A stretch of DNA of 64,000 nucleotides from an uncultured Planctomycetia bacterium. GTDB lineage: Bacteria; Planctomycetota; UBA8108; UBA1146. The notes under the pieces were generated by a model. The model worked only from the letters and a program-made list of their open reading frames with translations, had not been told where the DNA came from and made no database searches. The translations under genes and the position numbers were made by a program. Below are positions 6,211 through 55,321 of this stretch, piece by piece; the first letter of the stretch is position 1; every line of letters starts with the position of its first letter. The DNA lies in contig CAYRAM010000001.1 in NCBI GenBank assembly GCA_964422295.1, forward strand, positions 135,448 to 199,447, read 5' to 3'.

Positions 6211-6380
6211 GAGTGAGACAGGTGACGATGCCATGGGGCGGGTCACCCGTTCTGAAGGAATCTGCGAGGCAGACTTCGGAGCAAATTGGAAAGATTGAAA
6301 CTCGGCCACCTCTGGTGGCTGGAATAGCCAGCGGTCGCAAGGTGAAGCGACCGATTGACAACCAAAGCAAGGAGAGATCG

Positions 6381-8897: not shown

Positions 8898-8931
8898 TCG
8901 AGGCAAACTCCTGGCTGATGTCAGGTAGGAA

Positions 8932-12899: not shown

Positions 12900-12917
12900 T
12901 CGAATCATCAAAATTGG

Positions 12918-13709
12918 ATGGTGAGAGAGGAAAGAAAAATGAAGTTGACAGGTTTCATGAGCAAGAATCGGGGGAAGTCAATTTCCCGAATTCTGCTCCT
13001 GACCATCTTTGCAATGACGCTGGCTTTGGGGTCGAGCGTCATCGCTCATGCACAGCCTGAAGAGGCTGCTGCAGAGGAAAAGGAAACGATTTCTGTCCTC
13101 GATAATATTCGCGCAGCGGGGGCGGTCGGTGTGATTCTGATTCTGCTTTCGGGTGCGGGGTTTGCTTTGACCCTGATGCACGGTATGCAGTTGCGACGGG
13201 ATGTCCTGGTGCCGCCCGATTTGCTGGATCATGTCGAGTCGCTCTTTGAGACCGAGGATTACGAGGGGGCTTTGGATGCCCTGGAGCAACAGCCCAGCTT
13301 CCTTTCCAGTGTTCTCGCTGCAGGCCTGCCGAAGATCGATCGACCCTACGACGATATCGAAGATGCCATGGAGGAGGCCGGAGAGATCGAATCTTCCGAA
13401 TTGCATCGGAAGATCAGTTACATCTCGTTGATTGCGGCGATTTCTCCCATGTTGGGGTTGTTGGGTACAGTGATGGGAATGGTTACGGCGTTCAACGTGA
13501 TCGCTACCGAAAAGACATCACCGAAGCCGGCGGATTTGGCAGAAGGAATTTCGGAAGCGTTGATGACCACCATGATGGGATTGATCGTTGCGATCCCAAT
13601 GACGGTTTTCTACTTCATATTGAAAACGATCATCGATGGTGCATCTGTGGAGGTGAGCAGTATCGCTTCTGAGTTGATGTCTCGTTTTGATGATGGTGTC
13701 AACGCCTAA
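12918..13709 (+). CDS. exbB: MotA/TolQ/ExbB-family proton channel
   Basis: Carries the family signature 'SPMLGLLGTVMGMVTAFNVIA' and three TM segments. Confidence 0.85.
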   Translation: MVREERKMKLTGFMSKNRGKSISRILLLTIFAMTLALGSSVIAHAQPEEAAAEEKETISVLDNIRAAGAVGVILILLSGAGFALTLMHGMQLRRDVLVPPDLLDHVESLFETEDYEGALDALEQQPSFLSSVLAAGLPKIDRPYDDIEDAMEEAGEIESSELHRKISYISLIAAISPMLGLLGTVMGMVTAFNVIATEKTSPKPADLAEGISEALMTTMMGLIVAIPMTVFYFILKTIIDGASVEVSSIASELMSRFDDGVNA

Positions 13710-13726
13710 GGCTGGACGGAGCAAGA

Positions 13727-14233
13727 ATGGCACGGAAACAGAAGAAAATACTGAAAAAGAAAGGAGTCGACATGGACATGACGCCCATGATCGACATCGT
13801 TTTCTTGCTCATTGTTTTCTTCATGGTGGTCACAGAACTCACGGTGCAGCAAGCAGAGGTGATTTTGCCGATCGCATCTGAAGCGACCGTTGAGGAGCCT
13901 CAACCCGGTAGCCGAATCTTGTTCATCAACGTCTCCTTTGACAAAGAAGGCAATGAAGTTGTGCAGTTGATGAATAGCTCTCCGCTGACTCCGGAGAGGT
14001 TGCGATTGGAATTGAAACTGGAGGCGGAGGCGTACGGACTTTGGGAAGATAATCCTGTGAACCCCGATCCAAAGATGCGCCTCTCGAAACTCGAGGTGAC
14101 AATTCGTTGTGACCAGGGTGCCGAGAGTGGAAACATTCACAAGATTTTTGCCGCTTGCCAATATGCACGGATTTACCAGGTGCGATGTGCGGCGATTTCA
14201 GAAAGATTTGAGGACCCTTACAACCCTGAGTAG
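13727..14233 (+). CDS. exbD: ExbD/TolR-family protein 1
   Basis: 'MDMTPMIDIVFLLIVFFMV' is the canonical ExbD/TolR N-terminal TM motif. Confidence 0.85.
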   Translation: MARKQKKILKKKGVDMDMTPMIDIVFLLIVFFMVVTELTVQQAEVILPIASEATVEEPQPGSRILFINVSFDKEGNEVVQLMNSSPLTPERLRLELKLEAEAYGLWEDNPVNPDPKMRLSKLEVTIRCDQGAESGNIHKIFAACQYARIYQVRCAAISERFEDPYNPE

Positions 14234-14297
14234 CGGGGTTCGTTGCAGTGAATCCCCCGGAGGATGTCCGTGGTGGAGGAGAAAGAAGGGAGGAAGC

Positions 14298-14810
14298 ATG
14301 GCGAGAAGAAAGATCATCGATCCGGACCGCAACAAGGCAGATGCGGATATGACGCCTATGATTGACGTCGTGTTCCTTCTGTTGATCTTCTTCATGTTGG
14401 CAACCAAGTTCAAAATGCCCGAAGGAACGCTGAGGTCCTATCTCCCTAAGAATCGGGGAGAATCCAACAGCCGTCCGATGTTGTCAGAAAATTGTCGGGT
14501 CACCCTGCTTTATCAGGGGGATCAAGTGGTGGCCTATGCTGATCAGGCGCAGGTCCCAACCAGTGATGTCCTGGAGTCTGATTTCGAGTTGCACACCGGC
14601 GTTCCTGGTCCCGATCTCGATTACATTGAACAGCACATCCTTCGCCGCAGGGATACCTACGTAGCCCTGGGTGATACTGCGACATTGCCTGTTGTCATCG
14701 ATTTTGCAGAAAAAGTTCCGTACAAGTACGTGATCGACGTTTTGAACATTTGCGCCAAGTTAGACATTGAGAACATAGCCTTTGCCCAACCGGAAACTCC
14801 GATGGACTGA
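14298..14810 (+). CDS. exbD: ExbD/TolR-family protein 2
   Basis: 'ADMTPMIDVVFLLLIFFML' motif. Start set at ATG 14298 after GGAGGA. The ORF track's 14109 start would overlap exbD-1. Confidence 0.85.
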   Translation: MARRKIIDPDRNKADADMTPMIDVVFLLLIFFMLATKFKMPEGTLRSYLPKNRGESNSRPMLSENCRVTLLYQGDQVVAYADQAQVPTSDVLESDFELHTGVPGPDLDYIEQHILRRRDTYVALGDTATLPVVIDFAEKVPYKYVIDVLNICAKLDIENIAFAQPETPMD

Positions 14811-14977
14811 GGTGACGTTTCGGAAGTTCGATTGCTTTCGACGTTGTGAAGTTTGCAATTTGCCGATCTCGTCCATTTACCCTTGGAGGGGTGGACGAAA
14901 GAAGAAAGGGTGCTCTCGTGATTGAGACCCATAATCCCCAGAACGGCGCTGTCCCTGCCGTCTCTCGTGGAACCTCC

Positions 14978-17590
14978 ATGCTTCCGGGCAACATCGTTTG
15001 TCTTGGAATCATCGTGCTCCTGTTTTCCGGCTGTAGTGGATCTGCGGATCCGCGTCCAAGCGAGGTGGCATTCGAGCCTCCGCGCAAGGAAGCGAGCTCG
15101 GAAGGACAGGATCTTTTCGCCCGTACCCAGGATCCCGACGACCGCGGTGTCCAAGCCGTTGCCGACGAGGTCAATCTCGCCAGGCAGGCGAATCGAGCTA
15201 CTGCGAATTGGCTCCTGGAACAGGCAAACAAGCTGTTCGCAGAAGCGAATTACGCTGCTGCCGAGCGGGCTTACCGTCGGGCACTCGATGCCGATCCCAC
15301 CCTTCAGGAGGCGAAGGAAAAGTTGTCCCGCTGCCTGATGTTCCTCGGTCGCAGGGACGGTGAGATCCGAACGATTCTTCAGCAGTTCGGTGAAGAGGTT
15401 CGGGTGCTGGAGGAGCAACGTCTCAGTGAGGCCAATCGATTCCTCTCTGATGGCAAGGCTGCTCTCGACGCCGGGAAGATCGACGAGGCTCTCGGTCTGC
15501 TCCAACGCGCAAGAGAGCGACTGATCTGGTTCGATTACGGAGTCGATGTCACCGACATGCAGGCTGAAGCTCAGAGTCTTTATGACACGGCGCGCGGACT
15601 CAAGATCGACATGGACAAGCGGTCGAGAGAGCAGAGAGAAGCCCTCGCCATCGAGGAAGCGGAACGTCTGACGAGGGAAGTTGAAAAGCGTCGCTTGGAG
15701 CGAATCGCAACTCTCATGGATCGCATCGAAGATGCGATGGTTCGTGAGGACTTCCGAGAGGCGATCCAATTGTCGAGGACCATCTTGGGCATCGACCCCG
15801 AGAATCTTGCAGCACGCCGTCTTCAGGATCGTGCCAGCGAGTTTCTTCGTTCCTTCCGCTATGTCAGTTATCTTGGGCGTGAAAAAGAGCAAACCACGCG
15901 GGTCTGGGAAGATTTGGAAGCGAGTGCGATCCCGTACGAGGACCCATTCCGCTTCCCCGAAGACAAGAATTTCTGGCAGGGAGAAGTGCAGAAGCGCCTC
16001 GATGAGCTCTCCAGTTCCAATTTGGAAGAGTCCCCCGAAATCCGCAAAATTCGCCGCACTTTGGCGACCGGTACCACCTCATTTGACTTCCCCGATGCCA
16101 ACTTGGGTGAAGTTGTGGAGTTCCTGCGATCGGTAAGTGATCTCAACATCACCATTGATCCTGAAATCGATGCTGCGGATGTTCCAGTCAACCTGTCATT
16201 GGAAGGCGTCAAACTCGGCGAAGCGCTCGACCTGATCATGAAGGCTACCGGCAAAGCCTTCACATTCAGGGAGAATATCCTCTTCATTACAGAACCGGAA
16301 AATGCCTTTGGCGATCTGATCTTCGATATTTACAACGTGACCGACATTCTCAACAAGATCAGGGATTTCCCTGGTCCGGCGATTCGAGTATCGAGCAATG
16401 ACGAGGGAGAGGACGGAGGTGGTGACAACCCCTTCGACTTCGGTGGCTTCGATGAGGAAGAAGACGCAGAACTGACTCCCGACGATCTCGTGGAGTTGAT
16501 CCAGGAGTCCACCGGTGGTGCAGATGCCTGGGATGAATCCAATTCGACCATCAGTGGTCACAAGGGCCAGATTCTGATCAATGCCACCCGTGAATTGCAC
16601 CTGTCGATTCATGATTTCCTCACCAATCTTCGCGCTAACAGTGACGTCTTTGTCGTCGTGGAAGCTCGATTTATCGACATGGTCGATGATTTCCTTGAGG
16701 ACATCGGGGTCGATTCGAGAAACTTGGGGCAACCTCCCGGGCAAGGTTTTGGTACCGCATACGGGAGTTTGAACAGTTCTGGAACCGGGGGGACCGACAT
16801 CGGTTTCAATAACCTCGGTGATCCGGCAGATCCTCTGCTGGTCATGGGTCAAAATCGAACCGCAGGCCGTATGCAGAATATCCTCGACGGCTTTGTTGGG
16901 GGGGCTGCTGGAAGTCGCCTGAACTCCACACTGCGAGGACTGACGATGCAGGTCACCTGGCTTGACCCCTTCCAGATCAACGCGATCATTCGTGCCAGTC
17001 AGGAAGAGCGTGCTGCGAGGATCGTTACTGCACCCAAAGTGACCGCGTCCAATGGCCAGCGTGTCCATGTCTCTGTGATCACACAGCGCTCCTATGTTCA
17101 GGACTACGAGTTGGTTTCTGGTGGTACAGGACTAGTCGTATCCGAGGTTGCTGACCCGGTGATCGACACCTTCCAGGACGGCGTTGTCCTCGATGTTCGC
17201 CCAGTGATTTCAGCGGATCGGCGTTACATCACTGTGGATGTTCGTCCGACTCTTGCAAGTTTGATCAACGGAGTCATTTCGACGGTAACCATCAGTCTGG
17301 GAACACTTTCGAGTGCGGCGAGTCTCGTAGAAATCGATCTGCCGGAGATTTCGTTGCAGCAGGCGTTTACTTCGGTGACGGTTCCCGATGGCGGTACTGT
17401 TCTATTGGGTGGATTCCGTTCGCTCAATGAACTGAATTACGAATCGACGGTGCCGATTTTGGGGAATATTCCGATTCTCAAAAACGCTTTCCGTCGCAAA
17501 GCGAACCTTAATGAAAAGCGCAGTCTTTACATTCTTGTAACTGCAAAGATTGTCGATCTGCGTGCTGAAGAGCAGAAGTTGTTCAACTAA
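14978..17590 (+). CDS. Secretin (PilQ/GspD family) lipoprotein with N-terminal TPR/coiled-coil region and STN/N0-like domain - secretin paralogue 2
   Basis: The C-terminus carries the secretin signature (VTVPDGGTVLLGGFRSLNELNYESTVPILGNIPILKNAFRRKANLNEKRSLYILVTAKI). Start at ATG 14978 gives the lipobox signal 'MLPGNIVCLGIIVLLFSGCSG'. Its architecture parallels secretin 1 (ARERLIWFDYGVDVTD vs ILERIRWFPFDYDLSD). Confidence 0.85.
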   Translation: MLPGNIVCLGIIVLLFSGCSGSADPRPSEVAFEPPRKEASSEGQDLFARTQDPDDRGVQAVADEVNLARQANRATANWLLEQANKLFAEANYAAAERAYRRALDADPTLQEAKEKLSRCLMFLGRRDGEIRTILQQFGEEVRVLEEQRLSEANRFLSDGKAALDAGKIDEALGLLQRARERLIWFDYGVDVTDMQAEAQSLYDTARGLKIDMDKRSREQREALAIEEAERLTREVEKRRLERIATLMDRIEDAMVREDFREAIQLSRTILGIDPENLAARRLQDRASEFLRSFRYVSYLGREKEQTTRVWEDLEASAIPYEDPFRFPEDKNFWQGEVQKRLDELSSSNLEESPEIRKIRRTLATGTTSFDFPDANLGEVVEFLRSVSDLNITIDPEIDAADVPVNLSLEGVKLGEALDLIMKATGKAFTFRENILFITEPENAFGDLIFDIYNVTDILNKIRDFPGPAIRVSSNDEGEDGGGDNPFDFGGFDEEEDAELTPDDLVELIQESTGGADAWDESNSTISGHKGQILINATRELHLSIHDFLTNLRANSDVFVVVEARFIDMVDDFLEDIGVDSRNLGQPPGQGFGTAYGSLNSSGTGGTDIGFNNLGDPADPLLVMGQNRTAGRMQNILDGFVGGAAGSRLNSTLRGLTMQVTWLDPFQINAIIRASQEERAARIVTAPKVTASNGQRVHVSVITQRSYVQDYELVSGGTGLVVSEVADPVIDTFQDGVVLDVRPVISADRRYITVDVRPTLASLINGVISTVTISLGTLSSAASLVEIDLPEISLQQAFTSVTVPDGGTVLLGGFRSLNELNYESTVPILGNIPILKNAFRRKANLNEKRSLYILVTAKIVDLRAEEQKLFN

Positions 17591-31854: not shown

Positions 31855-32940
31855 TTATCGACTTGCAGGATCCCTGCAGAGGTCAAAGGCGAGGAGTGCA
31901 AAATGGGTGGCAGCATGACTGATGAAGTGATGACCATCTCTCTTGGGGGATCGGGTAAACCAGCGGCCACTCTCACGCTGCTGCCGTCGGAGCCAATTGA
32001 GGCCCTTTTTGATGACGGGATGTTTCGCAGAGACTCCGCTATTTCTGAGGAAAAATACGGAGAAGGCCGTTGCATAGGCATCGCTGGGGAGATCTGCGAC
32101 CTCATCCGTTGAACGTTTCCATCGGGAAGCCCCTAGGTCGACCAGACGCCAGCCTCCATCGGTGCGCTGTTTGGTGAGCAACTCCCTTTGCCAAGAGCGC
32201 TTTTGGGCTTTGCTCACCCAACCTCGCCAGCGGGATTCTGCCCACAGCAGCATCCCCTTGTGATGCAGGTTTTCCGGGGGATTTTTCTGGAGCCATCTTT
32301 TCAGTTTGGCGATTCCCTGGAGGGTGCGGGCAGATTTTCGCTCAGATTCAGGAAGGTAGCTCAGCGCAACTGTCACCAATGAGACTCCAAAGTGATCATC
32401 CGATTCGAAGGGGGGCCACCCACACTTGAGCCACTGGGACCAAGCTCCATCTTCGTCTTGCAGAGTCCAGATGTGATCAAGGGATGCGCGAGTTGTTTCC
32501 GAGAGATTGCCTTCGGTGAGAATATCACTGATCGTCAGAAAAGCGGCGGTGGCGACCTTGCCCTCCACCGAACCGTGCTGGCGTGAAGGGGGTTGCTGAT
32601 CGATGACGTATCTGTGCAGATATTCCTTGGCGAAATCTCTGGTGCGCTGGTTGCCGGCAGATTGAGGTGCGAGGTGGGCAGCGGTGATCAGGTGGAGCCC
32701 ATTGGTGTGGCAGGTGACACAGTTGCGCTTCTGTGCCCACTGATCTGCGACCGTCTGTGAAAATTTAAGGGCTGCTGCGAGAGAAAATTCCTTTCGCAGT
32801 GACTCTTTGGCATCGTTGGGTGCCAGCGTCTCTCCGGGCTGTGGCGAATCATCCTTGGCGAAGGAGGGGGGGATCAATCCCACCGCCAAGATCCCCAAGA
32901 TCAGGGCCAACACAGCAAGTTGCAGGGGGGATCTCAACAT
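31855..32940 (-). CDS. Secreted protein with one c-type heme motif (CVTCH) and prenyltransferase/squalene-oxidase-like QW repeats
   Basis: Has a signal peptide, a single CxxCH motif, and three 'Q..DGxW'-type repeats (LQDEDGAWSQW, TKQRTDGGWRL, RQQRESGRWF). Confidence 0.5.
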   Translation of the reverse strand: MLRSPLQLAVLALILGILAVGLIPPSFAKDDSPQPGETLAPNDAKESLRKEFSLAAALKFSQTVADQWAQKRNCVTCHTNGLHLITAAHLAPQSAGNQRTRDFAKEYLHRYVIDQQPPSRQHGSVEGKVATAAFLTISDILTEGNLSETTRASLDHIWTLQDEDGAWSQWLKCGWPPFESDDHFGVSLVTVALSYLPESERKSARTLQGIAKLKRWLQKNPPENLHHKGMLLWAESRWRGWVSKAQKRSWQRELLTKQRTDGGWRLVDLGASRWKRSTDEVADLPSDAYATAFSVFFLRNSGVSAKHPVIKKGLNWLRRQQRESGRWFTRSPKRDGHHFISHAATHFALLAFDLCRDPASR

Positions 32941-36798: not shown

Positions 36799-39117
36799 TT
36801 ATTTGGTGATGACTCCTTCGGTGCAGACCAACAGTTCCTGGTGTGCTTGCGAGTCCTTTACGAACTTGTTTTCCTCCACATATCCGAGCGCTTTTTTACC
36901 GTCGTTGCACTGGGCATGGGGGTTGGCACCGCGGTCGAGGAGTATTTGAATGATGGCCGGATTGCTGTTGCAGCATGCGGCGACCATCAACGGAGTCATC
37001 CCCTGTTGATTTGTTGATTCAATGTTTGCTCCATGGTCAAGCATCAATGCGAGGATTTCAGGATTGGTGTTTTTGTATGCGGCTATGAGGAGTGGGTCCC
37101 AACCCTCCTGATTGCGAAAGTCCATCTTCGGAAATTTGCTCAAGAGCCGTTTTGTCACTTCCACTGAAGTGTTGCCGTAGGCTGCGATCATCAAGGGGTT
37201 CCAGCCAGATCCATTCAGTAAAGAAGCATCGAGATCGGAGCTGAACAGGAAATCGACGATCTGTGGGTGGTGTGAATTTGCGGCGGCATACATCAGCGCA
37301 GTTTCACCCGCTTCGTCCTGGGCATTCAAATCCGCACCTTTTTCAAGGAGGAGTTCCAGGACACCGGGATGGGACGAGTGGCTCGCTGCCAACATCAATG
37401 CGGTGGCCCCTGAGTGGTTGCGGGCATCGACGTCAGCACCATTGTCGATCAGGGAGTGCAGAACTTCCACGTTGGAATTATGATGCGCAGCGATCATCAG
37501 TGGGGTCCAACCGTCTTCATCCCGAGCATCCATCTTCGCTCCCCTTTTCAGGAGCAGATCGATCAACCATGGCTCGCCAGAGTTGCTGGCCGCATACATC
37601 ATCGGTGTCCAGCCGTTGGCGTCCTTGGTTTCGATATCGACGTCATTTTCCAGAAGCAAGTCGAGGATGGCTGTCACGCCCGTTTTTATCTCTTCTTCTT
37701 TTTGCTGAGCCTCTTGGATTCGTTTTTCTGAGCGCTCTTTGGCTTGGTCGAGGATTTCTTTTGCTTTGTCATCATCCGCGACTTGCGCCTTCAATTGTGC
37801 TCTTTCCAGAGCTCGTTTCGCATTCCTTTGGGCATATTTCACCGTTGGTTTTCTTGTTGTGATCAGCGTAACCAGGATAGGCGGTTCCCCAGCAAGGGTT
37901 GCTAAGTTTGGATCGACGCCACGATCGAGGAGCATCTTTGCAAATTCTCCATGCAACCTGTTGCATGCAACATGAAGGGGGGACCAGCCATTTTTGTTGA
38001 CTGAGGTGGGATCAGCCCCCGATTCGATGAGCGCTATTCCAATTTCAGGATTGACTCGATACTTTGCGGCGAGGTGCAGAGAACTGTATCCCGCTTTTGT
38101 TCCAGCATTGACGTCCGCCCCCGCCTCAAGAAGGATTTTGATAATCGCGGGATCAACATTTTTTGATACTCCCCGCTGCAGAGCCGTAAGATCTTGTCGG
38201 TCAGGGGCGTCGACCTCTGCGCCATGGCTGATGAGGAGACGGATGACTTCCGGATCTGCGGGTCGGTTTTCTTTTTCCGCATTTGGCTCGCGATGAGTTG
38301 CATACCGTTGAAACTTGAAGCGGCCGTTCCGATCACCCAATGCAAGGGTGAGAAGAGGGGAGATTTCACGAGAGCCTTCCTTGTACACCTCATTGACGTT
38401 TGACCCCGATTCAATCAAAGCTTTCACGAGATCAGCCGGGGCTCCGGTCTTGATGGCATGCATGAGAGCGGTGGAGCCTTGGTCGTCCTTTAATGCGACG
38501 GGGGCTCCCCGTTCGATGAGCAATCGTGTGATCTCGCCGGAAGAGTTGTGTTTTGCTGCGAGATTCAAAGGATTTCTACCTGTTTGATACAGCCTGCCAG
38601 CACTGGCACCACCGTCGAGCAAGGTTTTCGTCAGTTCGGGTGAATCCAAAAGGATTGCCTGTTCAATAGGGGTTCTCCGATGATCACCGGGGTCTTCGGT
38701 GTAAAGATGTACGCCATTTTCGATCAGCAATTTTGCGATCTCTGTGCGCGTAGAATCTCTTTCCTCGAAGTCCGGAGCCATGATGAGGTGAATCGCTCGC
38801 CCTCCCGTGGAACTCTTTGTATTCACATTGGCACCCGCCTGGATCAATCGTTCGATCACCTCCGGTTTGTAGGATCTGCTGACGGCAGTCAGTAAGGGGG
38901 TGTATCCGCGCGTGTCTTTGCCGTCAACTTCTGCACCCATCTGTATCAGTCCGGAAACGGCATTGACGTCATTGACGCCGTGAAGGTTCAGGGGGGTCTT
39001 CTTCGAAGGTTGCACGTCTGTACAGCCGATGAGGCAGATCAGTGGCGAAACCTGAAGCAGGGTGCAGAGCAGTGCCCGAACAAAAGTTGACATCGAGAGC
39101 CTCCATTCCGCCTCCAT
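36799..39117 (-). CDS. Ankyrin-repeat lipoprotein (772 aa, about 20 ANK repeats)
   Basis: Signal peptide/lipobox (LICLIGCTD). Repeated ANK consensus occurs throughout (GxTPLMxAAxxGHxxVVxLLLxxGADVNAxDxxGxTAL...). An alternative start lies 8 codons downstream. Confidence 0.9.
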   Translation of the reverse strand: MEAEWRLSMSTFVRALLCTLLQVSPLICLIGCTDVQPSKKTPLNLHGVNDVNAVSGLIQMGAEVDGKDTRGYTPLLTAVSRSYKPEVIERLIQAGANVNTKSSTGGRAIHLIMAPDFEERDSTRTEIAKLLIENGVHLYTEDPGDHRRTPIEQAILLDSPELTKTLLDGGASAGRLYQTGRNPLNLAAKHNSSGEITRLLIERGAPVALKDDQGSTALMHAIKTGAPADLVKALIESGSNVNEVYKEGSREISPLLTLALGDRNGRFKFQRYATHREPNAEKENRPADPEVIRLLISHGAEVDAPDRQDLTALQRGVSKNVDPAIIKILLEAGADVNAGTKAGYSSLHLAAKYRVNPEIGIALIESGADPTSVNKNGWSPLHVACNRLHGEFAKMLLDRGVDPNLATLAGEPPILVTLITTRKPTVKYAQRNAKRALERAQLKAQVADDDKAKEILDQAKERSEKRIQEAQQKEEEIKTGVTAILDLLLENDVDIETKDANGWTPMMYAASNSGEPWLIDLLLKRGAKMDARDEDGWTPLMIAAHHNSNVEVLHSLIDNGADVDARNHSGATALMLAASHSSHPGVLELLLEKGADLNAQDEAGETALMYAAANSHHPQIVDFLFSSDLDASLLNGSGWNPLMIAAYGNTSVEVTKRLLSKFPKMDFRNQEGWDPLLIAAYKNTNPEILALMLDHGANIESTNQQGMTPLMVAACCNSNPAIIQILLDRGANPHAQCNDGKKALGYVEENKFVKDSQAHQELLVCTEGVITK

Positions 39118-43992: not shown

Positions 43993-45126
43993 ATGAACGC
44001 TGGATCGAATATGACTTGGTTCCCATGTGCCATTCTCTCAGTGCTGTGGACGCTGGCTCTCTGTGGAGAGGTTTTGTCCCAGGATCCCCCCGCTCCTGCC
44101 AAGGAGGTCACCAAGGATGCTTCCGCAACCGATGACGGCGCCGACGGATCGGTCGACGACATTTTGGGTTTGCCGACCAGCGAGCCGGAAGCGGTGGCCG
44201 TGATCGATCGCTACCTTGAATCGGTGGGTGGCAAAAACCGCCTAAAAAGCATTCAGGACCGGGTCGAGCGCTTCCGCAATAAAAAGATAGAGCCTACCAA
44301 CGAGACGATCATGAAGATGTCACGGTTCCTCAAGCGCAATGACGGCGCATTGATGATTCGTGAAGAGTGGCAACTTCCCGGTCTTGGTCTGACCAAGAAC
44401 AACGAGCCTCTCAATTTCGTTCAGGTCTACGACGGTGAGAAAGCCTTCGTCAAAGCGATGGGCGCAGTCTCCCCGTTGGCAGGCAAGACCTTGATCGTGT
44501 TCGTGTGGGACAAGCACATCGATGACTTTTTCTGCACTTTTTCCGATAACGGCTACATCGCCAAGGTGGCCGCGGATGACGTCGTCCTGGGCAAGGCATG
44601 CAAGGTGGTGGAACTGAACTCTTTCGCAGGTAATCAACGCATGTTGTTTGCCTTCAGCGATGAAGACGGACTCTTGCTGCGCAAGACGTGGCAAGAGGGT
44701 CAGGCACCTGCAGTGATCACAAAAGAAGTCTTCTACGAAGATTACACCCGGATCCGCTTCAGCGACGATCGCAATCAGTGGATCAAAACTCCCATCTCCA
44801 AGAAGATTTTTGAAGACGGGGAACTCAGCCTTGAAGTCAACTTTGATGAAATCACCCTCAATGCGGGGATTTCCTCCAACATCTTTGGTCGTCCTGACGG
44901 ACGATCCTTTGAAGAGGTTCGCCGCGAGCGAGAAGCTGCCAGAGCCAAAGAGAAAGAAGGCGTTGCAGGGGGCGATGCAGCCGAAGGCGATGAAAAGAAG
45001 CCGGTCTGGGAGAAGCCGAAACCAAAGCCGAAGCCTGTGTGGGAAAAACCCAAACCAAAACCTGCGCCGAAGCCGGCTCCAAAACCAGAGCCGACTCCGG
45101 AGCCCACACCTGAACCCAAGCCTTAG
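43993..45126 (+). CDS. Secreted protein with C-terminal (K/E)P-rich repeat tail
   Basis: Has a signal peptide (CAILSVLWTLALCGEVLSQ) and a C-terminus of 'KPVWEKPKPKPKPVWEKPKPKPAPKPAPKPEPTPEPTPEPKP'. Confidence 0.5.
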   Translation: MNAGSNMTWFPCAILSVLWTLALCGEVLSQDPPAPAKEVTKDASATDDGADGSVDDILGLPTSEPEAVAVIDRYLESVGGKNRLKSIQDRVERFRNKKIEPTNETIMKMSRFLKRNDGALMIREEWQLPGLGLTKNNEPLNFVQVYDGEKAFVKAMGAVSPLAGKTLIVFVWDKHIDDFFCTFSDNGYIAKVAADDVVLGKACKVVELNSFAGNQRMLFAFSDEDGLLLRKTWQEGQAPAVITKEVFYEDYTRIRFSDDRNQWIKTPISKKIFEDGELSLEVNFDEITLNAGISSNIFGRPDGRSFEEVRREREAARAKEKEGVAGGDAAEGDEKKPVWEKPKPKPKPVWEKPKPKPAPKPAPKPEPTPEPTPEPKP

Positions 45127-47938: not shown

Positions 47939-49027
47939 GTGACACAAATTCACGCATCCCTGATGGGGTCGGATGTGGTCACTGCCTCGATGAGGAGAGT
48001 GGATTCAGGTCTTCCTCTGCAGGAGCCTGCTGCCTCGGATAAGGGGGCATCGGTGATGGAAGAATCAGAAACGGATCACGCAGAGTTGCCCACAGCCCAT
48101 GAATCAGCGAATTCCGATGATGAGGCATCGATTTCCCAGGATGAGTTTGCAAGAAGCAGTGAACCCGCGATTTGGCGAAGAAGCGCCGAAGATTGGCCTT
48201 CCGGTTTTACGGACTTGGGAGACGGACAGCCGAAATCTCTGTGGAGAATGGGGCCGATCAAGATCGGGGAGCGCAAAGTTGTGGCCATCGTCGGATCGAG
48301 GAGGTCGACCGTTGCCGGGCTGGTTCGTGCCCGGGCACTCGGAGAGAAGTTGTCAAAGATGGGGATCAGCGTGATCAGTGGCTTGGCGCGAGGCATCGAT
48401 TCGGCCGCTCTGTCAGGAGCCTTGCAAGGGGCTGCTCCGGCGATCGCAATACTGGGTAATGGATTGCCGAGGATTTACCCGCCAGAAAATCATTCGCTGG
48501 CGGAGGCGATCATCGATCATGGGGGAGGAGTGGTGACAGAGTACCCCTCCTCCGCACCACCGAGAGCGGCCCACTTCCCCCAAAGGAACCGGTTGATCAG
48601 TGCGTGGGCAGAGACGGTGGTCGTCGTCGAGGCAACGAGTCGATCGGGATCACTGGGGACCGCTCACCGGGCCTTGGAGATGGGGAGGTCGGTTCTGGCC
48701 TTTCCCGGGTCTGTCGAATCAGGGGAATACGGGGGATGCCATGCTCTGATTCGTGAAGGGGCCCATTTGGTCGAAAACGTCGATGACGTGACCGAGGTGA
48801 TACTGGAACAACGACAGCCAGGGGAACACTCGAGTGAGAAACGGCAGTTGGCCCGGCTCTGGAAATTGTGTGGAGAATCGGGGGAATCGCCACACCCCCC
48901 CGGGCCTGAAGCCCTGGATTTGTTACAGCAGCGGACCGGTTGGTCCGCTGCTTACCTCCTGCAGGTTTGGTGGAAGTGGCAGGAGCACCATCGTCAGCAG
49001 ATCATTTCCGATCAGGGGCACGGATAA
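47939..49027 (+). CDS. dprA: DNA-processing protein DprA (Smf)
   Basis: 'RKVVAIVGSRRST..G...A..LGEKLSKMGISVISGLARGIDSAA...IAILGNGL..IYP.ENHSLAEAIIDHGGGVVTEYP' is the DprA Rossmann-like core. The N-terminal ~70 aa is atypical, so the start may be downstream. Confidence 0.85.
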   Translation: MTQIHASLMGSDVVTASMRRVDSGLPLQEPAASDKGASVMEESETDHAELPTAHESANSDDEASISQDEFARSSEPAIWRRSAEDWPSGFTDLGDGQPKSLWRMGPIKIGERKVVAIVGSRRSTVAGLVRARALGEKLSKMGISVISGLARGIDSAALSGALQGAAPAIAILGNGLPRIYPPENHSLAEAIIDHGGGVVTEYPSSAPPRAAHFPQRNRLISAWAETVVVVEATSRSGSLGTAHRALEMGRSVLAFPGSVESGEYGGCHALIREGAHLVENVDDVTEVILEQRQPGEHSSEKRQLARLWKLCGESGESPHPPGPEALDLLQQRTGWSAAYLLQVWWKWQEHHRQQIISDQGHG

Positions 49028-51489
49028 GTGGGGCAATCGAGTGCGTCGTCGGTGGGATCCGATCCACACTGCAGGGGGGGTGGCAGGGGACCCGCGGATC
49101 CGAACAGATACGACAGGACACGAATGGCATCGGCGATGTCGATGAGGCCGTCATCATTGGCATCGAGTGCATCGTCACAGTCGATGGGGGTTTCCCCCGA
49201 AAAGAGGATTCCCAACAAGGCGATGGGATCGCCGATATCAATGGCCCCATCCGCATTGGCATCTCCGCGCGTGAATATTTCCGAGATGAAGATGACGACG
49301 GTTGCACCCTGCGTTTCCGGGGTCACCGATGCTCCTGAAACGGTTGCGAGCACATTTTGGACTGTGGGTTGTCCCAGGGTATTGACGAAATCGAGATATG
49401 GAAGCTGTGTTGGCAGCAACCCGGAGTATTCGATGGTCGCCACAGGAATACTGTTTTCGAAAGACAGGTTCTCCTGAAGGGTGAAATCGACGAGGCAAGC
49501 GATGGTGACGCCGTCGATCAGGATTGCAGTTTCAAAGAAGTCGGGGCCTGTATTGTTGCCGAGAGCAGCAAGAGAGTCACTGATCGTGACAGCGGTTGCC
49601 GTCAGGGAAGTGGCGTCATGACCGATTCCCATCGAGAAACCTGCGCAGAGAATTGGCGCACCTGAGGTCTGGAAGATTTCCGGTGTTGCCGAAAGTTCAT
49701 TTCCAGCTGAACTGGTGATCTGCGGGATGCGGTAGACAAAAGGTGAGGTGGTCGGAGGGGTGACCTCTACGGTCGTGGAGGCGTTCTCCATCAATGTTCC
49801 GAAATCAGGACCTTCGATATCCGCAAGCGGCAATCCCAAACCATCGGTCTGCCAATTTTTGTCAGCGACCATCTGCCGGGGTGCACGGCGGTAAATCAAT
49901 CGTGCTTCAACCGAAACTGGACTGACGGTCCCACTGAGATCGAAACTGATCTGGGTGAGGTCCGATGCCAAGGGTGCAATTCGATTGTCAAGCACGATGG
50001 AGTCTGCCTCGGTGAACAGAACGTTTTCAGTCCCACTGGCGTCACGATTGATTTTGGCGAAGACTTTTCCGGGCAATCCGGCAAAGAACCCTTGGGCGGG
50101 ATCACCGATTCCACCCAGGGGATTGATGATATCCCCGGAAGATTGTGATAACGCGGTTCCGTTTGAGTCTGTGGCAATGACACGGAGCACCATATTTCTC
50201 AGCGTGACTCCGCTTGGAACTGCATGTCCGGTCTGATCATTGAGTATCTCGGCTGAAACTTGTAACTCATCGCCGACCTGGATCGCATTGAGAGTGAGTG
50301 TGACCGCATTTTCAAGAAAGATGGGAGTTGTTCCCTGGATGTCGTGTCCGTGAACCGTGGACGGATCTCTGAGAAGTGGTGGGAAGAGGGCAGAGCAGGC
50401 ATCCACCGGTTCGCTGGCAAAGGGAGTCATGTGGCAATCAACGCAGGTTTGGTAGAGAGGATCTGAAGGATCGCCGTAGGGGGAGCTCAGCCATTCCGAG
50501 TAGGTCTCCTGAGCAGGAATGCTGGAGGCCTCATTAAAGTCATTGTCGTGGTCGGGATCATTGTTGTACTCATGGCAAACCGCGCATGCTTCAGCGGCCA
50601 ATTGGGGCTGAAAGCTGCCGCGCATTTGATTCTGCACCACAAAGTCGACATCGCCGAGGAGACCGTACATCACCTGATCGATGAGACCACTGGAATCGGG
50701 TCTCTGAACGGTAACCGCACCGGGGATGAATCCCGTCGCATCCAATTGGTTTTCATCCACGTGAGCGATTTTGTGACAGGTCTCACAGGAAACTCCCCGC
50801 TCTTGAGCTTCGGTGGGAGGGCCTGACAGGGGAGCGAGTGGCGAGAATGGTTGTGCGATCCAGCCTTCGGGCTGGTGACACGAAGCGCAGCTTCCATCAG
50901 GTGCGACCCCGGCATGGATGGAATCGCGGAGATAGACGAATCCACCATTTCCACCTGCTGTTCCCGTGCCGTCAAAGAGGTCGTAAACCCAGGTATTCAA
51001 ACCGGTGTGGGACATTCGTGAATCCGCCCACTGCTCATATTGCACCGGATGGCAGATGGCACATTGGAATGGGGTCACAAAATTGTAGTTGGGATCGTCT
51101 TCAGGGTTGACGGGATCGAGCGCGATCACCACCGATGTTTGAGGTGTGTTTACCGTGACAGGTGCATTGAAGTAACCCTTGTGGGCTCCAACTATCTTCA
51201 ATCCCAATCCTGAAACGGAAGGCAGCGAAAAAGTTCCATCGATGGCTGATTCTGTACAAATCGTCGTTGCCTGGAGGGTGACTTTTGCTCCTGATAGCGG
51301 ATCACCCGTGGCTGAGTTGATCACCGTTCCACTGACTTGGGCATCCACCGATTGCAAAGTCGGGCCGCAATTGAGGATCAAAATTGTTGCCACGTAGATC
51401 CAGGGCAGCCTGCCGATAAGACCCTTGGAATGGGGGTTTGAACGAAGTGTTGGGATGACGAATCGGTACACGCCTGCTCCTGATTGCAA
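49012..51489 (-). CDS. Secreted multiheme (5x CxxCH) c-type cytochrome with N-terminal CarboxypepD_reg-like domain and C-terminal dockerin-type repeats
   Basis: Five heme motifs are present: CAICH, CASCH, CETCH, CAVCH and CVDCH. The N-terminus 'VSGTVINSATGDPLSGAKVTL...DGTFSL' matches the CarboxypepD_reg pattern. The C-terminus 'GDANADGAIDIGDPIALLGILF...DANDDGLIDIADAIRVLSYLFG' is a dockerin-type Ca-binding repeat pair. Confidence 0.75.
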   Translation of the reverse strand: MQSGAGVYRFVIPTLRSNPHSKGLIGRLPWIYVATILILNCGPTLQSVDAQVSGTVINSATGDPLSGAKVTLQATTICTESAIDGTFSLPSVSGLGLKIVGAHKGYFNAPVTVNTPQTSVVIALDPVNPEDDPNYNFVTPFQCAICHPVQYEQWADSRMSHTGLNTWVYDLFDGTGTAGGNGGFVYLRDSIHAGVAPDGSCASCHQPEGWIAQPFSPLAPLSGPPTEAQERGVSCETCHKIAHVDENQLDATGFIPGAVTVQRPDSSGLIDQVMYGLLGDVDFVVQNQMRGSFQPQLAAEACAVCHEYNNDPDHDNDFNEASSIPAQETYSEWLSSPYGDPSDPLYQTCVDCHMTPFASEPVDACSALFPPLLRDPSTVHGHDIQGTTPIFLENAVTLTLNAIQVGDELQVSAEILNDQTGHAVPSGVTLRNMVLRVIATDSNGTALSQSSGDIINPLGGIGDPAQGFFAGLPGKVFAKINRDASGTENVLFTEADSIVLDNRIAPLASDLTQISFDLSGTVSPVSVEARLIYRRAPRQMVADKNWQTDGLGLPLADIEGPDFGTLMENASTTVEVTPPTTSPFVYRIPQITSSAGNELSATPEIFQTSGAPILCAGFSMGIGHDATSLTATAVTISDSLAALGNNTGPDFFETAILIDGVTIACLVDFTLQENLSFENSIPVATIEYSGLLPTQLPYLDFVNTLGQPTVQNVLATVSGASVTPETQGATVVIFISEIFTRGDANADGAIDIGDPIALLGILFSGETPIDCDDALDANDDGLIDIADAIRVLSYLFGSAGPLPPPLQCGSDPTDDALDCPTYPCP

Positions 51490-51688: not shown

Positions 51689-54600
51689 GTGGCTGCCCAT
51701 CCGGGAGACACCGGCGAAGCCGGGATGTCCGATCGCTTTGAGCCTATTCGACTTCTCGGTCGGGGGGGAATGGGAGAAGTGTGGCAGGTTCGTGATTCCC
51801 TCACCGGTGAGGAAGTCTCACTGAAACGGGTATCTGCGGCCCAAGCGAAAACTCCCATCGGTCAGAGGCTGCGCAGAGAGTATTTGAATCTGCAGCAGTT
51901 GCGCCACCCAGCCATCCTCGAAGTAAAAAATTATGCAGAGAATCCTGTCACCGGTGAAGCCTGGTTTTCCAGCGAAGTGCTTCGGGGGCCGAGTTCGACC
52001 GATCTATCAGGAACATTGAATTTCCACAGATGGTTACAATTATCGGCGGGATTCCTTCGATCATTGGCGTTCCTCCATCGAAACGGTTGGGTACACGGGG
52101 ACATCAAGCCTGACAATATTCGTCTCAGGAGTCCGGTGGGTTCACAGCCGATGGACCCGGTCCTTCTCGATTTTGGATTAACACGCAGGGAACACCTTCC
52201 TGCAGAAGAAAAGATTCTCGGGACACCCCAATCGATGGCTCCGGAACAATGGCTCGGTCAGCCTCCCGATTTCCGTAGTGATGTCTACTCTGCGGGGATA
52301 TTGCTCTTCCACTGGTGGACGGGCAGGTTTCCCTTTGAAGATGTCTCCAAGCCTCTTCTCAGCAGTGCCCACCTTCATGATGAGATTGTTGATCCTGGTT
52401 CATTGCGAAGCGGGTTGCCCGTCGAAGTCTCAGGGATACTGCTGAAGATGTTGGCGAAGAGGCCCGATGATCGACCGTCAAATGCTGGCGAAGTCCTGTC
52501 AACTTTGGCGACGACACTCGACGAAGAAGTGAATGAGAAGGCGGAAACCGTAGCCTCCTTACTGTCTCAGATCGAGTATGCGGGAGTGGGGGAGGCTCCA
52601 GTCAGGGAACTGCAGGATGCGCTATTGCAATGGGTAGGTTCTTCTGCAGAACAAGAGTCGCTCATCCATTTGCATCGAAATGACGCCGACCGAAAAATCA
52701 TCGTGGATCGGGTAGTTGGTATTCTGCAAAGCAGGGGCATCGGTGTTGTTACCCTCAAGGGTTGCTCTACAGAGCCATTTTTTGAATTGTCACGCAGTAT
52801 CGATCGTACGTGGAAAAAAATAGTCGTTCTCGTGAGAGATCCGGAACTCGGAAATTCGGAATGGCAAAAGCTACTCCAAATTCGCCAATGGAAATCATCG
52901 CGTCTTCATTGGTGGATCAGTTCCAGGGAAACCCCAGCGGGTTTCTTTGGCCAGGCTCTCTCTGTCTGTCACTTGAGGAAGATCTCCACTGACGCATCTG
53001 TGCTTCCGGAATTGGATGAGTTTGTTGAGAACGCTTTGCCTGGCTGTCAGCTTTCTTCCCGGGTGCGTGGTCGACTTCAATCATGGGGCCAAGACCAACC
53101 CGGGATGTGGCGCAGAATTCTCCGCGGGCGCATCAAATCTGGGGAATTGAATCATGATGGTCAGCGATGGATCTGGCGAGAGAATCAGCTTCCTGTGGAA
53201 GATTGTTGGCGCAAAAGGGCACAGCAAGAAGCGTCCACTCTCTCCGATTCAAGCGGCAGGATTTTGGCCGCCTTGGCGGTATTGGGAAAGCCTGGGTCGG
53301 TCGCTGAAATTTCAACGTTGGTGGAGCTGCCCTCGGGAGAATTGCCGGTTCGAATCGCAGAACTGGCTGCCCAGAAGTGGTTGAGAGTGGGGCGCAGGAT
53401 TCAATTTGTTGAGCCATTTCAGCAGGATGCAATTCTTGCCGCACTGGATGCTGGGGAGCGAAAAGAGATTCATGCCCGCGTAATCCAACTGAGTCATGAA
53501 GATCGACTGGAGAAAGCGCACCATCAATTGAGTGCAGGGAATGCCATTGGTGCTGCAGAGACCTTACGGCCATCTCTGAGAGAGGTTGAGCAACCGAAAT
53601 CTTTGGAAGAAGCCCTTCGCTGGGTCCCATTACTTTCTTCTCTGGTTCAATTGCTGCCGCAAGACTCACGGGGTGTCTGGTTGGAAATGCTGGGACAGAT
53701 GGAAGATCGATTGGGCCATTCGGCACTTCGCGACCATGCGTGGAGGGAGGCAGAAAGATGTTATCAATCAGGGTCCAGAGAGGCGTTACGTTTGACCCGT
53801 TGGCGAGCCTCAGTATATCGCAGAGATGGAGAATCTCGGAAAGCATTGGCTTGCATCGAAGGCATTGCCCGCCAAGAGATTGATTTTTCAAATTCACAGG
53901 TGATGGAGGAGGCGATCCTCGTCGCTCTGGAGTTTTCACGGATACAAAGGGGCCTCGCCAGGCAAGGCTTGGGAAAGTTGCCAAAAAAAGATCCATTGGC
54001 GGAGTGGATACCGCGCTGTCGTGGTGCGATGAGAGTTTCACTAATTCTTGAACAGTGCCGTCGGTACTTGCTACAGGGGAGCCGTCTGAGAGCACGCGAT
54101 CATGCGCGGATTGCCCTCGGTGAGAGCAGTATTGCCCGAGTCAACTGTGAAGCGATGAGCCTCCTTGCGCGTGCCAATGGAGATTTGCCATCCCTTCGCC
54201 TCTGGAGCAAGCTCCACGGATTCCTCGCGCGCAAAGAGAATCGACACGAAGCCGCCACGGCTGCAGAGGTCGACGCTGTGGAGGCTCTACAACGGATGGG
54301 TGAATCCCCCCGGATCGGAACAGAAATTCACAGTTTGATCGAAAGGGCGCGAAAAGAGTGCCCCGCTCAGTTGCCCAGGGCCCTCTTGGTTCGTGCCCGA
54401 GAGGAATCTGGAAGGGGGTTTATCCGTTCAGCGGCGAGGGATCTAGAAGAGGCGATGTCGTTGGAGGGGCCTGCAGGAATCGTCGCGTGGGAAGGAAATC
54501 TTTTGGTGGCCGCATCGGAGTGGGTTGCCGGAAGGACTGCAACTGCCATCAAAATCCTCGAGGCGGCCAAGCCGGACTGGGCTCCCCATGAGCCTGAGCG

Positions 54601-55321
54601 TATCGACGTGCATGCCCGTCATGCCATTCTCCGAAGTCGGTGTGTCAGATCTTTAGGAGAATTATCGGGGAGCTTGTTTGTGATCGATCACGCCTTAGCG
54701 GATCTGCGCATGAGAGGCACTGAGCAGGACCTGGTTTCATTGCGCTGGGAACGAATCGCATTGCTTCGATTGTTGGGGAGGGATTCCCTGGCTCGTATGG
54801 AGGAGAGCAAGTTAAAGGGATTGACTTCACTGGAGCCGGGGTTGGACCCCGAGCCTGCGGGATCCCGAAGGGCAGAGGTGACTTTTAGGGATTTGGTGCG
54901 CGGCTTTGGTCGTTCTATCGATGAGGAGGATTGGAACTCTCGCTTGGAGGGGGTGGCACTCGATGCTCTGAGACTGAGGGCCCAGCCGCTTTCGCTGCGC
55001 ATTCAGTTGGCAAAATTGTTGTCGACACCTCATCCGGATTCCGAATCGTTGGCACGCCATTGTTGGAAGAAAGCGGTGCGATTGGAGACTCGGGAAGCAA
55101 GGGCTCTTGTTTTGGGTTTTTGGGCTCGTGTACGCAGAGAGCAGGGAGATCTCAAATCTGCACAGATCCTTCAACTTGCAGCGGAGCGGGAATTGGATCG
55201 CTGGTATCAGAGGTCCCCTTCGGGAAGCGTTCAGGCGGCGATCGCAGAATGGTTGGGGATTGAAGAGGGATCTCTCCGAATTAGTTCGGCGATGGGTGGC
55301 CGAAACAACCTCCTGACGTAG
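51689..55321 (+). CDS. Ser/Thr protein kinase with ~900-aa C-terminal helical (TPR/STAND-like) region
   Basis: 'LLGRGGMGEVWQV...VSLK', 'HRNGWVHGDIKPDNIRL', 'DFGL' and 'GTPQSMAPEQ' are Hanks-type kinase subdomains I to VIII. Confidence 0.85.
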   Translation: MAAHPGDTGEAGMSDRFEPIRLLGRGGMGEVWQVRDSLTGEEVSLKRVSAAQAKTPIGQRLRREYLNLQQLRHPAILEVKNYAENPVTGEAWFSSEVLRGPSSTDLSGTLNFHRWLQLSAGFLRSLAFLHRNGWVHGDIKPDNIRLRSPVGSQPMDPVLLDFGLTRREHLPAEEKILGTPQSMAPEQWLGQPPDFRSDVYSAGILLFHWWTGRFPFEDVSKPLLSSAHLHDEIVDPGSLRSGLPVEVSGILLKMLAKRPDDRPSNAGEVLSTLATTLDEEVNEKAETVASLLSQIEYAGVGEAPVRELQDALLQWVGSSAEQESLIHLHRNDADRKIIVDRVVGILQSRGIGVVTLKGCSTEPFFELSRSIDRTWKKIVVLVRDPELGNSEWQKLLQIRQWKSSRLHWWISSRETPAGFFGQALSVCHLRKISTDASVLPELDEFVENALPGCQLSSRVRGRLQSWGQDQPGMWRRILRGRIKSGELNHDGQRWIWRENQLPVEDCWRKRAQQEASTLSDSSGRILAALAVLGKPGSVAEISTLVELPSGELPVRIAELAAQKWLRVGRRIQFVEPFQQDAILAALDAGERKEIHARVIQLSHEDRLEKAHHQLSAGNAIGAAETLRPSLREVEQPKSLEEALRWVPLLSSLVQLLPQDSRGVWLEMLGQMEDRLGHSALRDHAWREAERCYQSGSREALRLTRWRASVYRRDGESRKALACIEGIARQEIDFSNSQVMEEAILVALEFSRIQRGLARQGLGKLPKKDPLAEWIPRCRGAMRVSLILEQCRRYLLQGSRLRARDHARIALGESSIARVNCEAMSLLARANGDLPSLRLWSKLHGFLARKENRHEAATAAEVDAVEALQRMGESPRIGTEIHSLIERARKECPAQLPRALLVRAREESGRGFIRSAARDLEEAMSLEGPAGIVAWEGNLLVAASEWVAGRTATAIKILEAAKPDWAPHEPERIDVHARHAILRSRCVRSLGELSGSLFVIDHALADLRMRGTEQDLVSLRWERIALLRLLGRDSLARMEESKLKGLTSLEPGLDPEPAGSRRAEVTFRDLVRGFGRSIDEEDWNSRLEGVALDALRLRAQPLSLRIQLAKLLSTPHPDSESLARHCWKKAVRLETREARALVLGFWARVRREQGDLKSAQILQLAAERELDRWYQRSPSGSVQAAIAEWLGIEEGSLRISSAMGGRNNLLT

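Follow-up and report, generated by a model that had tools for sequence, protein, structure and literature searches.

What is a secreted cytochrome that ends in a dockerin doing in a planctomycetal genome, and what could it dock to? The question is raised by a gene in a 64,000-nucleotide stretch of DNA from an uncultured Planctomycetia bacterium (GCA_964422295.1, contig CAYRAM010000001.1, positions 135,448 to 199,447), hereafter the window, for which an original prediction had proposed a surface-tethered electron-transfer protein and had named the absence of any cohesin partner as an argument against docking. The gene was found to encode an exported five-heme protein of the c552/PHC fold with one cohesin and one dockerin, its modules being ordered as signal peptide, CarboxypepD_reg-like spacer, five-heme alpha-helical cap, immunoglobulin-like (Ig-like) stem, cohesin, and calcium-binding dockerin with a Cys-rich tail. 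The search for a cohesin partner led to the cytochrome itself, in which a cohesin-fold module was found, and to sister genomes, which encode proteins with two or three cohesins.

The gene and its export signal

The cytochrome open reading frame (ORF) occupies 49012..51489 on the (-) strand, with its stop codon at 49012-49014; amino acid (aa) positions are counted here from its first TTG, and all features of the gene given below lie on the same strand. The length of 825 aa proposed earlier holds when counted from that TTG, but a GTG at 51469-51471 is the likelier start and yields 819 aa, equal in length to the database protein P0001 (819 aa), which is 100% identical to the window protein. The GTG at 51471 is favoured because a Shine-Dalgarno-like AGGAG, read from the sequence at 51477..51481, lies 5 nucleotides (nt) upstream of it and because the 819-aa product matches P0001. 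The N-terminus is a predicted Sec signal peptide (aa 7-50, 51340..51471), suggested by hydropathy and by a junction conserved in orthologues, with a basic n-region, a hydrophobic core at aa 28-40 and a junction between VDA and QVSG, aligned orthologues sharing A/G-QVSG at the end of the signal peptide. Neither a lipobox nor a twin-arginine motif was seen on inspection of this region. Together with the five heme motifs and the two dockerin loops described below, these signal-peptide features bear out the proposal of a secreted multiheme c-type cytochrome with a genuine dockerin.

A pentaheme core with the modelled fold of the PHC group

All five CxxCH motifs previously claimed are present, namely CAICH (heme 1, aa 143-147, 51049..51063), CASCH (heme 2, aa 201-205, 50875..50889), CETCH (heme 3, aa 235-239, 50773..50787, followed by an invariant K240), CAVCH (heme 4, aa 302-306, 50572..50586) and CVDCH (heme 5, aa 349-353, 50431..50445, followed by M354 in 85/86 sequences), whereas only 0.008 would be expected by chance from the Cys and His content of the protein. 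Their spread had been put at about 500 aa and is in fact 211 residues (aa 143-353). In every other frame of the window, at most one CxxCH motif occurs. In an alignment of 86 core sequences (A1, about 50% identity), all five motifs are invariant.

This alignment was used to model aa 120-590, with a predicted local distance difference test score (pLDDT) of 93.2 and a predicted template modelling score (pTM) of 0.91. The model contains the alpha-helical pentaheme cap (aa 130-395, 50305..51102), followed by an Ig-like beta-sandwich stem (aa 396-576, 49762..50304) that carries an invariant loop, NDxTG-H422-xVPxG, and M567. When the model was compared with the PDB by Foldseek, the penta-heme cytochrome c552 of Thermochromatium tepidum (5ZE8) was matched with E 3.6e-19 and a template modelling score (TMt) of 0.72, all other matches being to generic beta-sandwiches; the same protein was the sole informative PDB sequence match of the core (E 3.3e-4). 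The PHC group comprises proteins with an alpha-helical five-heme cap and an Ig-like stem, including c552, Geobacter ExtKL/MccSep and Gsu2801, and the sPHC/lPHC proteins of cable bacteria (PMC11976967). In the window protein, five CxxCH motifs lie in one helical cap, the Ig-like stem is packed on the cap and the fold is similar to 5ZE8. Because of the Foldseek match to 5ZE8 and the cap-plus-stem architecture, the modelled core is a member of this group by fold.

Sequence families placed the core less closely. The Pfam model Cytochrome_C554 barely passed its cut-off (21.7 vs 20.8), no stretch being significant alone, and matches to MtrC/MtrF II-IV, Cytochrome_C7 and Cytochrom_c3_2 were partial and sub-threshold, as were the scores of all NCBIfam matches (OmcA/MtrC decaheme, ExtKL and HmcA). 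Neither Pfam nor NCBIfam holds a dedicated model for the core family, and Pfam recognised no family in the isolated Ig stem. Identity with MtrC, OmcA or OcwA was rejected on the number of hemes, five, and on scores below the cut-offs (TIGR03507, 20.3 vs 209.3; PF22113, 25 vs 30). No OmcA/MtrC structure appeared among the listed Foldseek matches, c552 of T. tepidum being the only multiheme one, and the framing within the OmcA/MtrC/OcwA families suggested in the original prediction is not supported. Membership of the MccSep family was likewise rejected, given the score of ExtKL NF040886 (aa 301-449, E 0.0017, 17.0 bits vs a cut-off of 250), a His (H422) in the stem loop, and the lack of any Cys between the motifs of hemes 4 and 5 (aa 306-348), residue equivalence being approximate. 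HmcA, an anammox S-layer protein and SusC were discarded as identities, since they gave only sub-threshold partial matches.

Outside the motifs, the only His residues invariant in the 86 sequences are H382 and H422, the equivalents of both being His in c552, so that a conserved distal His is available for two hemes at most. M159, M289 and M567 are invariant and M354 is found in 85/86; at the position of M159, in the segment that comes after the first aligned CxxCH motif, MccA has a His. Conservation therefore predicts about two hemes with His/His and three with His/Met ligation, and with such mixed ligation, higher potentials than those of the all-bis-His cytochromes of metal reducers would be expected. 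The alignment has 61 invariant columns, which include the non-ligand residues K240 and K544 and several Arg, and Y338 and C365 are present in 83/86 and 79/86 sequences, respectively. One orthologue with 60% identity (P0015) reads CAVCL instead of CAVCH at heme 4, which may be a sequencing error or a four-heme variant.

Between the signal peptide and the cap lies a CarboxypepD_reg-like beta-sandwich N-domain (aa 51-118, 51136..51339), assigned from sub-cut-off Pfam matches and from PDB matches to SusC N-terminal domains. CarbopepD_reg_2 (PF13715) covers aa 52-118 with E 7.7e-7 and 29.5 bits against a cut-off of 32.2, and PF13620 reached E 8.7e-5 and 23.2 bits against 32.3. The N-domain claimed earlier scores just below the Pfam cut-off in the window protein and above the CarboxypepD_reg cut-off in homologues (P0035, 39.5 bits; P0023, 34.5 bits).

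A divergent cohesin next to the dockerin

The cohesin-like module (aa 582-737, 49279..49746), previously unannotated, was recognised by a fold match and by profile. In a model of the cohesin/dockerin region (aa 575-825, pLDDT 80 overall), the module itself mostly reaches means of 86-97 per 10-residue block. Every one of its top 50 Foldseek matches in the PDB is a cohesin (E 6.1e-8 to 1.1e-4, probability 1.00, TMt up to 0.74); these matches include cohesins of types I, II and III and the non-cellulosomal Archaeoglobus cohesin, and identity to the listed PDB cohesins is 9-18%. According to this model, aa 582-737 folds as a cohesin jelly-roll.

A profile made from the modules of ten orthologues (A3) was used for an exhaustive search of 1.84 billion representatives, in which 662 proteins were retrieved at E<=1e-3, 245 of them at E<=1e-10. 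The 149 top cohesin proteins, a set that excludes P0001 (the cluster representative of the cytochrome itself), typically consist of a signal peptide, n cohesins and a dockerin, with n=2 in 90, n=3 in 22 and n=1 in 17 proteins and up to five cohesins; the profile of the dockerin and Cys tail matches 133 of them. Large N-terminal cargo was found in 20/149, for example an M4 peptidase, an S8 peptidase or a choice-of-anchor I domain, and none of the 149 contains a CxxCH motif. All members with this type of cohesin whose organism is named in the source come from metagenome-assembled genomes (MAGs) of Planctomycetota. A profile built from the modules of other proteins matches the window cohesin with E 1.6e-35, while Pfam Cohesin matches 13 of 98 related proteins, with a best E of 2.5e-11. 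This is a divergent planctomycetal cohesin type that the Pfam Cohesin model largely misses, and cohesin systems are for that reason probably under-counted in genome surveys.

Directly after the cohesin lies a type-I-like dockerin (aa 740-797, 49099..49272). Its two DxNxDGxxDxxD loops can be read directly from the sequence, DANADGAIDIGD at aa 743-754 and DANDDGLIDIAD at aa 776-787, 33 residues apart and with an invariant C771 between them, and a helix is predicted after each loop in the model of aa 575-825. The region is also matched by dockerin sequences of the PDB, and a dockerin-plus-tail profile built only from other proteins hits the window protein with E 4.6e-29. The two calcium-binding segments noted earlier are thus confirmed, and the duplicated F-hand loop followed by a helix is that of a type I dockerin, with predicted calcium binding. 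In related tails Dockerin_1 passes its cut-off (P0133, 25.8 bits), and 36/98 related proteins match it at E<0.01.

The protein ends in a Pro-rich linker and Cys tail (aa 798-825, 49015..49098; consensus CGxDPTxDxLxCxxxxCP), modelled as disordered. The Cys-rich tail pointed out before is visible and conserved, with C808, C819 and C824 near-invariant among orthologues and C771 invariant. Disulfides are probably formed by it, and it may serve as a disulfide clasp or as a sorting signal. The consensus, together with the fourth Cys between the dockerin repeats, ends 35/120 core homologues and is also found in the tails of P0121-P0269.

Candidate cohesin-dockerin partners in sister genomes

Two sister genomes, GCA_002167285.1 and GCA_036125855.1, carry both multi-cohesin proteins and orthologues of the cytochrome (P0002, 80% identity, and P0010, 62% identity, respectively), and homologues of the three-cohesin protein P0123 are CBC13_05755 (Planctomycetia bacterium TMED53) and VX764_09640. 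The sister cohesin locus encodes a VKOR-DsbA fusion, proteins with 2, 3 and 3 cohesins plus a dockerin, and an M4 peptidase with two cohesins and a dockerin; genes for a dockerin-only arylsulfotransferase and a dockerin-only metallophosphatase are also present (L087). This locus resembles the "planctosome" of cohesin/dockerin proteins proposed for freshwater Planctomycetes by Andrei et al. (2019; PMC6461901). Planctosome-like loci extend over 630-19074 in L087 and 6720-16997 in L086, and all their dockerins end in the same Cys tail.

The core family and its exchangeable C-termini

A homologue search gave 462 matches among 8,000 candidates scored, and in a scan of one genome per species relatives were found in 460 of 185,579 genomes. 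The 80 loci returned, nearly all MAG-titled, come from Planctomycetota, Phycisphaerae, Eisenbacteria, Polyangiaceae and other Myxococcota, Gemmatimonadota, Binatia, Latescibacterota, Acidobacteriota and Ignavibacteriota; the family spans at least 8 phyla at about 50% core identity. The protein had been regarded as unusual for this kind of genome, a view that does not stand, given the spread of the family and the synteny of the gene in about 23 related marine Planctomycetota MAGs. No family member in the search outputs has a functional name given by its source, and no description of the family was found in literature text searches.

Signal peptide, CarboxypepD_reg domain and PHC core form the unit conserved across the family, and the C-terminus varies by lineage. 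Among the 120 best core homologues, 35 end in a dockerin plus Cys tail, 23 in a type IX secretion system C-terminal domain (T9SS-CTD)-like tail, 8 in a MYXO-CTERM-like, 3 in an IPTL-CTERM-like and 2 in a PEP-CTERM-like tail, and 2 in a GC-type dockerin; the other 47 comprise 44 unclassified tails and 3 with a transmembrane segment plus basic residues (examples being galactose-binding-like domains, Dicty_CTDC repeats, or no tail). Because different surface-sorting tags have been swapped on one conserved core, the family points to a role at the cell surface, and these predicted, exchangeable tags are the best available argument for it.

Within the closer group, every full-length orthologue keeps all modules. 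Mean identity to the window protein over 15 orthologues is highest for the heme cap (81%), followed by the dockerin (68%), Ig stem (67%), CarboxypepD_reg domain (62%), Cys tail (58%) and cohesin (48%).

Proposed role and alternative explanations

The reading towards which we lean, if only mildly, is that of a Sec-exported pentaheme cytochrome held in a cohesin-dockerin scaffold at the envelope, where it acts as a redox module. Its starting points are the heme motifs, the modelled folds, the family and the accompanying cohesin system, all described above; as to localisation, binding, heme ligation and redox partner, we infer that hemes would be attached outside the cytoplasm, after which the dockerin would insert, in a calcium-dependent manner, into a cohesin of the planctosome-type proteins with 2-5 cohesins. 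The cytochrome's own cohesin could accept another dockerin-bearing protein, possibly a second copy of the cytochrome. In this way a non-covalent scaffold at the envelope, probably at the cell surface, would hold the heme module, which would exchange electrons with an extracytoplasmic partner or substrate.

Several results weigh against such a role. No other cohesin or dockerin ORF was found within the window, and no electron-transfer partner is encoded beside the gene, whose neighbours are housekeeping genes. Pfam gave no match on the isolated module of aa 582-737, including to PF00963 Cohesin, a narrow cohesin profile run against PDB sequences retrieved no cohesin and only a chance match to PurE, and Pfam Dockerin_1 scored 15.7-17.8 bits (E 0.004-0.018) against a cut-off of 22.9. 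The predicted models contain no hemes, and distal ligands were deduced from conservation alone. Finally, for a protein that merely carries electrons, about 50% core identity between phyla is a high value, which may point to catalysis, and Planctomycetes have a large periplasm, so that the assembly could be periplasmic.

Two alternatives deserve most weight. It is possible, although we consider it less probable, that the heme core is a catalytic oxidoreductase like MccSep, the polysulfide reductase, or MccA, which the cassette merely positions towards a soluble or particle-bound substrate, e.g., a sulfur, nitrogen, metal or peroxide species. The degree of core conservation over at least 8 phyla, the 61 invariant columns with K240, K544 and several Arg, the near-constant Y338 and C365, and the co-encoding with enzyme-bearing cohesin/dockerin proteins in sister genomes would all fit catalysis, as would the invariant NDxTGH(x)VPxG loop, which projects from the Ig-like domain as does the catalytic DGUP loop of MccSep. 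However, that loop has a His instead of a selenocysteine or Cys, there is no Cys in aa 316-348, where a rough alignment would put the heme-ligating Cys, NF040886 scores 17 where 250 is required, the five invariant candidate ligands could render all five hemes six-coordinate, and no candidate substrate can be named. Somewhat more doubtful is a location of the protein and of the entire cohesin-dockerin assembly within the enlarged planctomycetal periplasm. A periplasmic location applies to both c552 and MccSep and is predicted for 97% of MccSep homologues. In the window protein a Sec signal peptide is the only recognisable export feature, and no known outer-membrane sorting tag is recognisable in this clade. 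A VKOR-DsbA gene lies in the scaffoldin locus, and disulfide-forming enzymes of this type act in the periplasm. On the other hand, homologues in other phyla bear T9SS CTD, MYXO-CTERM, PEP-CTERM and IPTL-CTERM surface-sorting tags, and cohesin-dockerin systems characterised so far are extracellular; secretin genes are present in the window, though nothing ties them to the cytochrome.

The remaining explanations are less probable. The neighbouring cohesin and dockerin might pair intramolecularly, forming a structural clasp or an auto-inhibited state but no intermolecular network; the modules adjoin with only about 3 residues between them, and 133/149 proteins with this cohesin also end in the dockerin. 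A linker of about 3 residues is, however, very short for folding back, and most such proteins have 2-5 cohesins per single dockerin and are accompanied in the same sister locus by dockerin-only enzymes, implying free cohesins that accept the dockerins of other proteins; a clasp is judged quite unlikely. A terminal metal reductase of the MtrC/OmcA or OcwA type, working at the outer surface in dissimilatory extracellular electron transfer, was suggested by weak matches to PF22113 (E 1.5e-5) and TIGR03507 (E 1.6e-4) in a secreted multiheme protein, but is contradicted by the tests of fold and family reported above. Both scores stay below their cut-offs, there are five hemes rather than ten or nine, the neighbourhood encodes neither a porin nor a periplasmic decaheme partner, and the predicted His/Met hemes are atypical of all-bis-His metal reducers, making this reading extremely improbable.

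The scaffold-held redox module that we prefer could be extended to a more ambitious version, rather unlikely in our estimate, in which the dockerin/cohesin cassette would let pentaheme units daisy-chain or load in several copies onto proteins with 2-5 cohesins, giving rise to a modular, non-covalent multiheme array outside the cell. If true, this would be a third route to extracellular redox assemblies besides cytochrome filaments (OmcS, AvECN) and porin-cytochrome conduits, and it would occur in Planctomycetota of the oxic ocean without known extracellular electron transfer.

As for novelty, the individual parts belong to kinds already known, i.e., PHC cytochromes, cohesin-dockerin pairs and CarboxypepD_reg domains. 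Novel features are the joining of a multiheme cytochrome to a cohesin-dockerin system, the recognition of the divergent planctomycetal cohesin type and the delineation of a large family of pentaheme proteins with surface-sorting tags; no paper on a multiheme cytochrome fused to cohesin/dockerin modules was found in the searchable literature texts. A scaffold-held redox module, if confirmed, would take cohesin-dockerin assembly beyond hydrolytic enzymes and into redox proteins, and the exchangeable tags of the pentaheme family would argue for an unrecognised redox function at the cell surface. Testable predictions are the presence of five hemes, about three of them His/Met, and calcium-dependent binding of the dockerin to the cohesins named above.

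Genomic neighbourhood

The cytochrome gene is monocistronic, with a divergent Ser/Thr kinase gene upstream and a convergent dprA downstream. The maximal dprA ORF lies at 47939..49027 on the (+) strand (Pfam DNA_processg_A PF02481, E 2.3e-61) and its last 16 nt overlap the 3' end of the cytochrome gene at 49012-49027, in agreement with the 16-nt overlap computed originally. Relatives have gaps of 27-93 nt instead of this overlap, and the dprA ORF has 362 aa from its first start vs 279-295 aa in relatives. The kinase (51689-55321, (+) strand) is a 1210-aa protein with a long repeat-rich C-terminal region; its position is kept in 21 related loci and a regulatory link to the cytochrome may be possible. 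In a scan for promoters and terminators, 1 promoter-like site was found vs 1.8 expected, not above chance. The surrounding genes include an rlmN-like gene, leuS, aspS and pheST, and synteny is kept in the same set of about 23 related marine MAGs, indicating that the gene is a stable, vertically inherited part of the lineage. Horizontal transfer or an island finds no support, in view of the unremarkable GC content and of this conserved synteny.

In 13 of about 55 distant loci, a gene for a membrane protein with a Fer4_5 domain (NapH-like, 4Fe-4S) and a TPR tail was detected, mostly directly adjoining the cytochrome and on the same strand (L005 9932-11890, L046 9588-11528, L075 5758-7587 and 10 other loci). 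It hints at a membrane electron-transfer link, the Fer4_5+TPR protein being a candidate electron-feeding partner for the family. Since the gene is absent from the window and from the flanks of near relatives, it cannot explain the window copy. A further group of the neighbour analysis, "Cluster 15", proved to be noise from antisense ORFs in high-GC loci and was set aside.

Other genes of the window include a same-strand block at 2293-17590 (+) with a PilM-like gene (2293-4263) and two secretin+TPR genes (6213-8897 and 14846-17590), suggestive of a pilus or of a type II-like apparatus for export across the outer membrane; it lies about 30 kb from the cytochrome and nothing links the two. At 36799-39117 (-) a 772-aa protein is made up almost entirely of ankyrin repeats (Ank_2, E 4e-89), which is unusual for a bacterium. 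A 361-aa ORF at 31855-32940 (-) has a single CVTCH near nt 32721 and weak squalene-hopene-cyclase/prenyltransferase-like repeats, and could be a monoheme fusion or carry a chance motif. The 377-aa product of 43993-45126 (+), with an N-terminal hydrophobic stretch that may be a signal peptide and a low-complexity tail of KPKPKP/PEPTPEP type, matched no Pfam family.

Comparison with known systems

The closest structural relative of the core, c552 (5ZE8; Chen et al., 2019, via PMC11976967), shares only 18-20% identity with it and is soluble, with 385 residues resolved of a 435-aa chain sequence and with no CarboxypepD_reg, cohesin or dockerin modules. It is described as low-potential. The match informs on fold and not on function. 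PHC proteins show a Y-shaped arrangement of five hemes, whereas the models obtained here are heme-free. MccSep/ExtKL (GSU2937-2936) resembles the window core in its pentaheme cap, its Ig-like stem and a functional loop reaching from the stem toward the hemes. MccSep is a periplasmic, tetrameric pentaheme polysulfide reductase with four bis-His hemes and one His/Cys heme (heme-ligating Cys C239) and a catalytic selenocysteine or Cys (U325) in the stem loop (Sci Adv 2026, PMC13510729). The window core differs from it in the invariant His of the stem loop, in that no equivalent Cys was found, and in its predicted Met ligands.

With cellulosomal type I pairs, such as those of Clostridium thermocellum CipA (1AOH/1OHZ) and C. 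acetobutylicum (6KGF), the window protein shares the cohesin jelly-roll (TMt 0.68-0.74) and a dockerin with two DxNxDG loops 33 residues apart and a helix after each. In contrast to these pairs, cohesin and dockerin are here in one polypeptide, the dockerin is extended by the conserved four-Cys motif, the host is Gram-negative and non-cellulolytic, and the cargo is a cytochrome rather than a glycoside hydrolase.

Closer in plan are the non-cellulosomal cohesin/dockerin proteins of Planctomycetes, where they are linked to peptidases, and of anaerobic methane-oxidising (ANME) archaea, for which proteins combining a single dockerin with as many as five cohesins are reported (PMC9012536). In both systems the assemblies are hypotheses, and no multiheme cytochrome with cohesin/dockerin modules is described in the parts of their sources that were read (PMC6461901 and PMC9012536). 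The enzymes of the marine locus, an M4 peptidase, an arylsulfotransferase and a metallophosphatase, also differ from those of the planctosome.

No nanowire structure appeared among the listed Foldseek matches. AvECN nanowires (Baquero et al., 2023, via PMC11976967) are extracellular multiheme assemblies reported to be evolutionary relatives of pentaheme proteins of the c552 type. AvECN polymerise directly via the cytochrome fold, with four hemes per subunit, whereas assembly of the pentaheme protein described here would make use of separate cohesin-dockerin modules.

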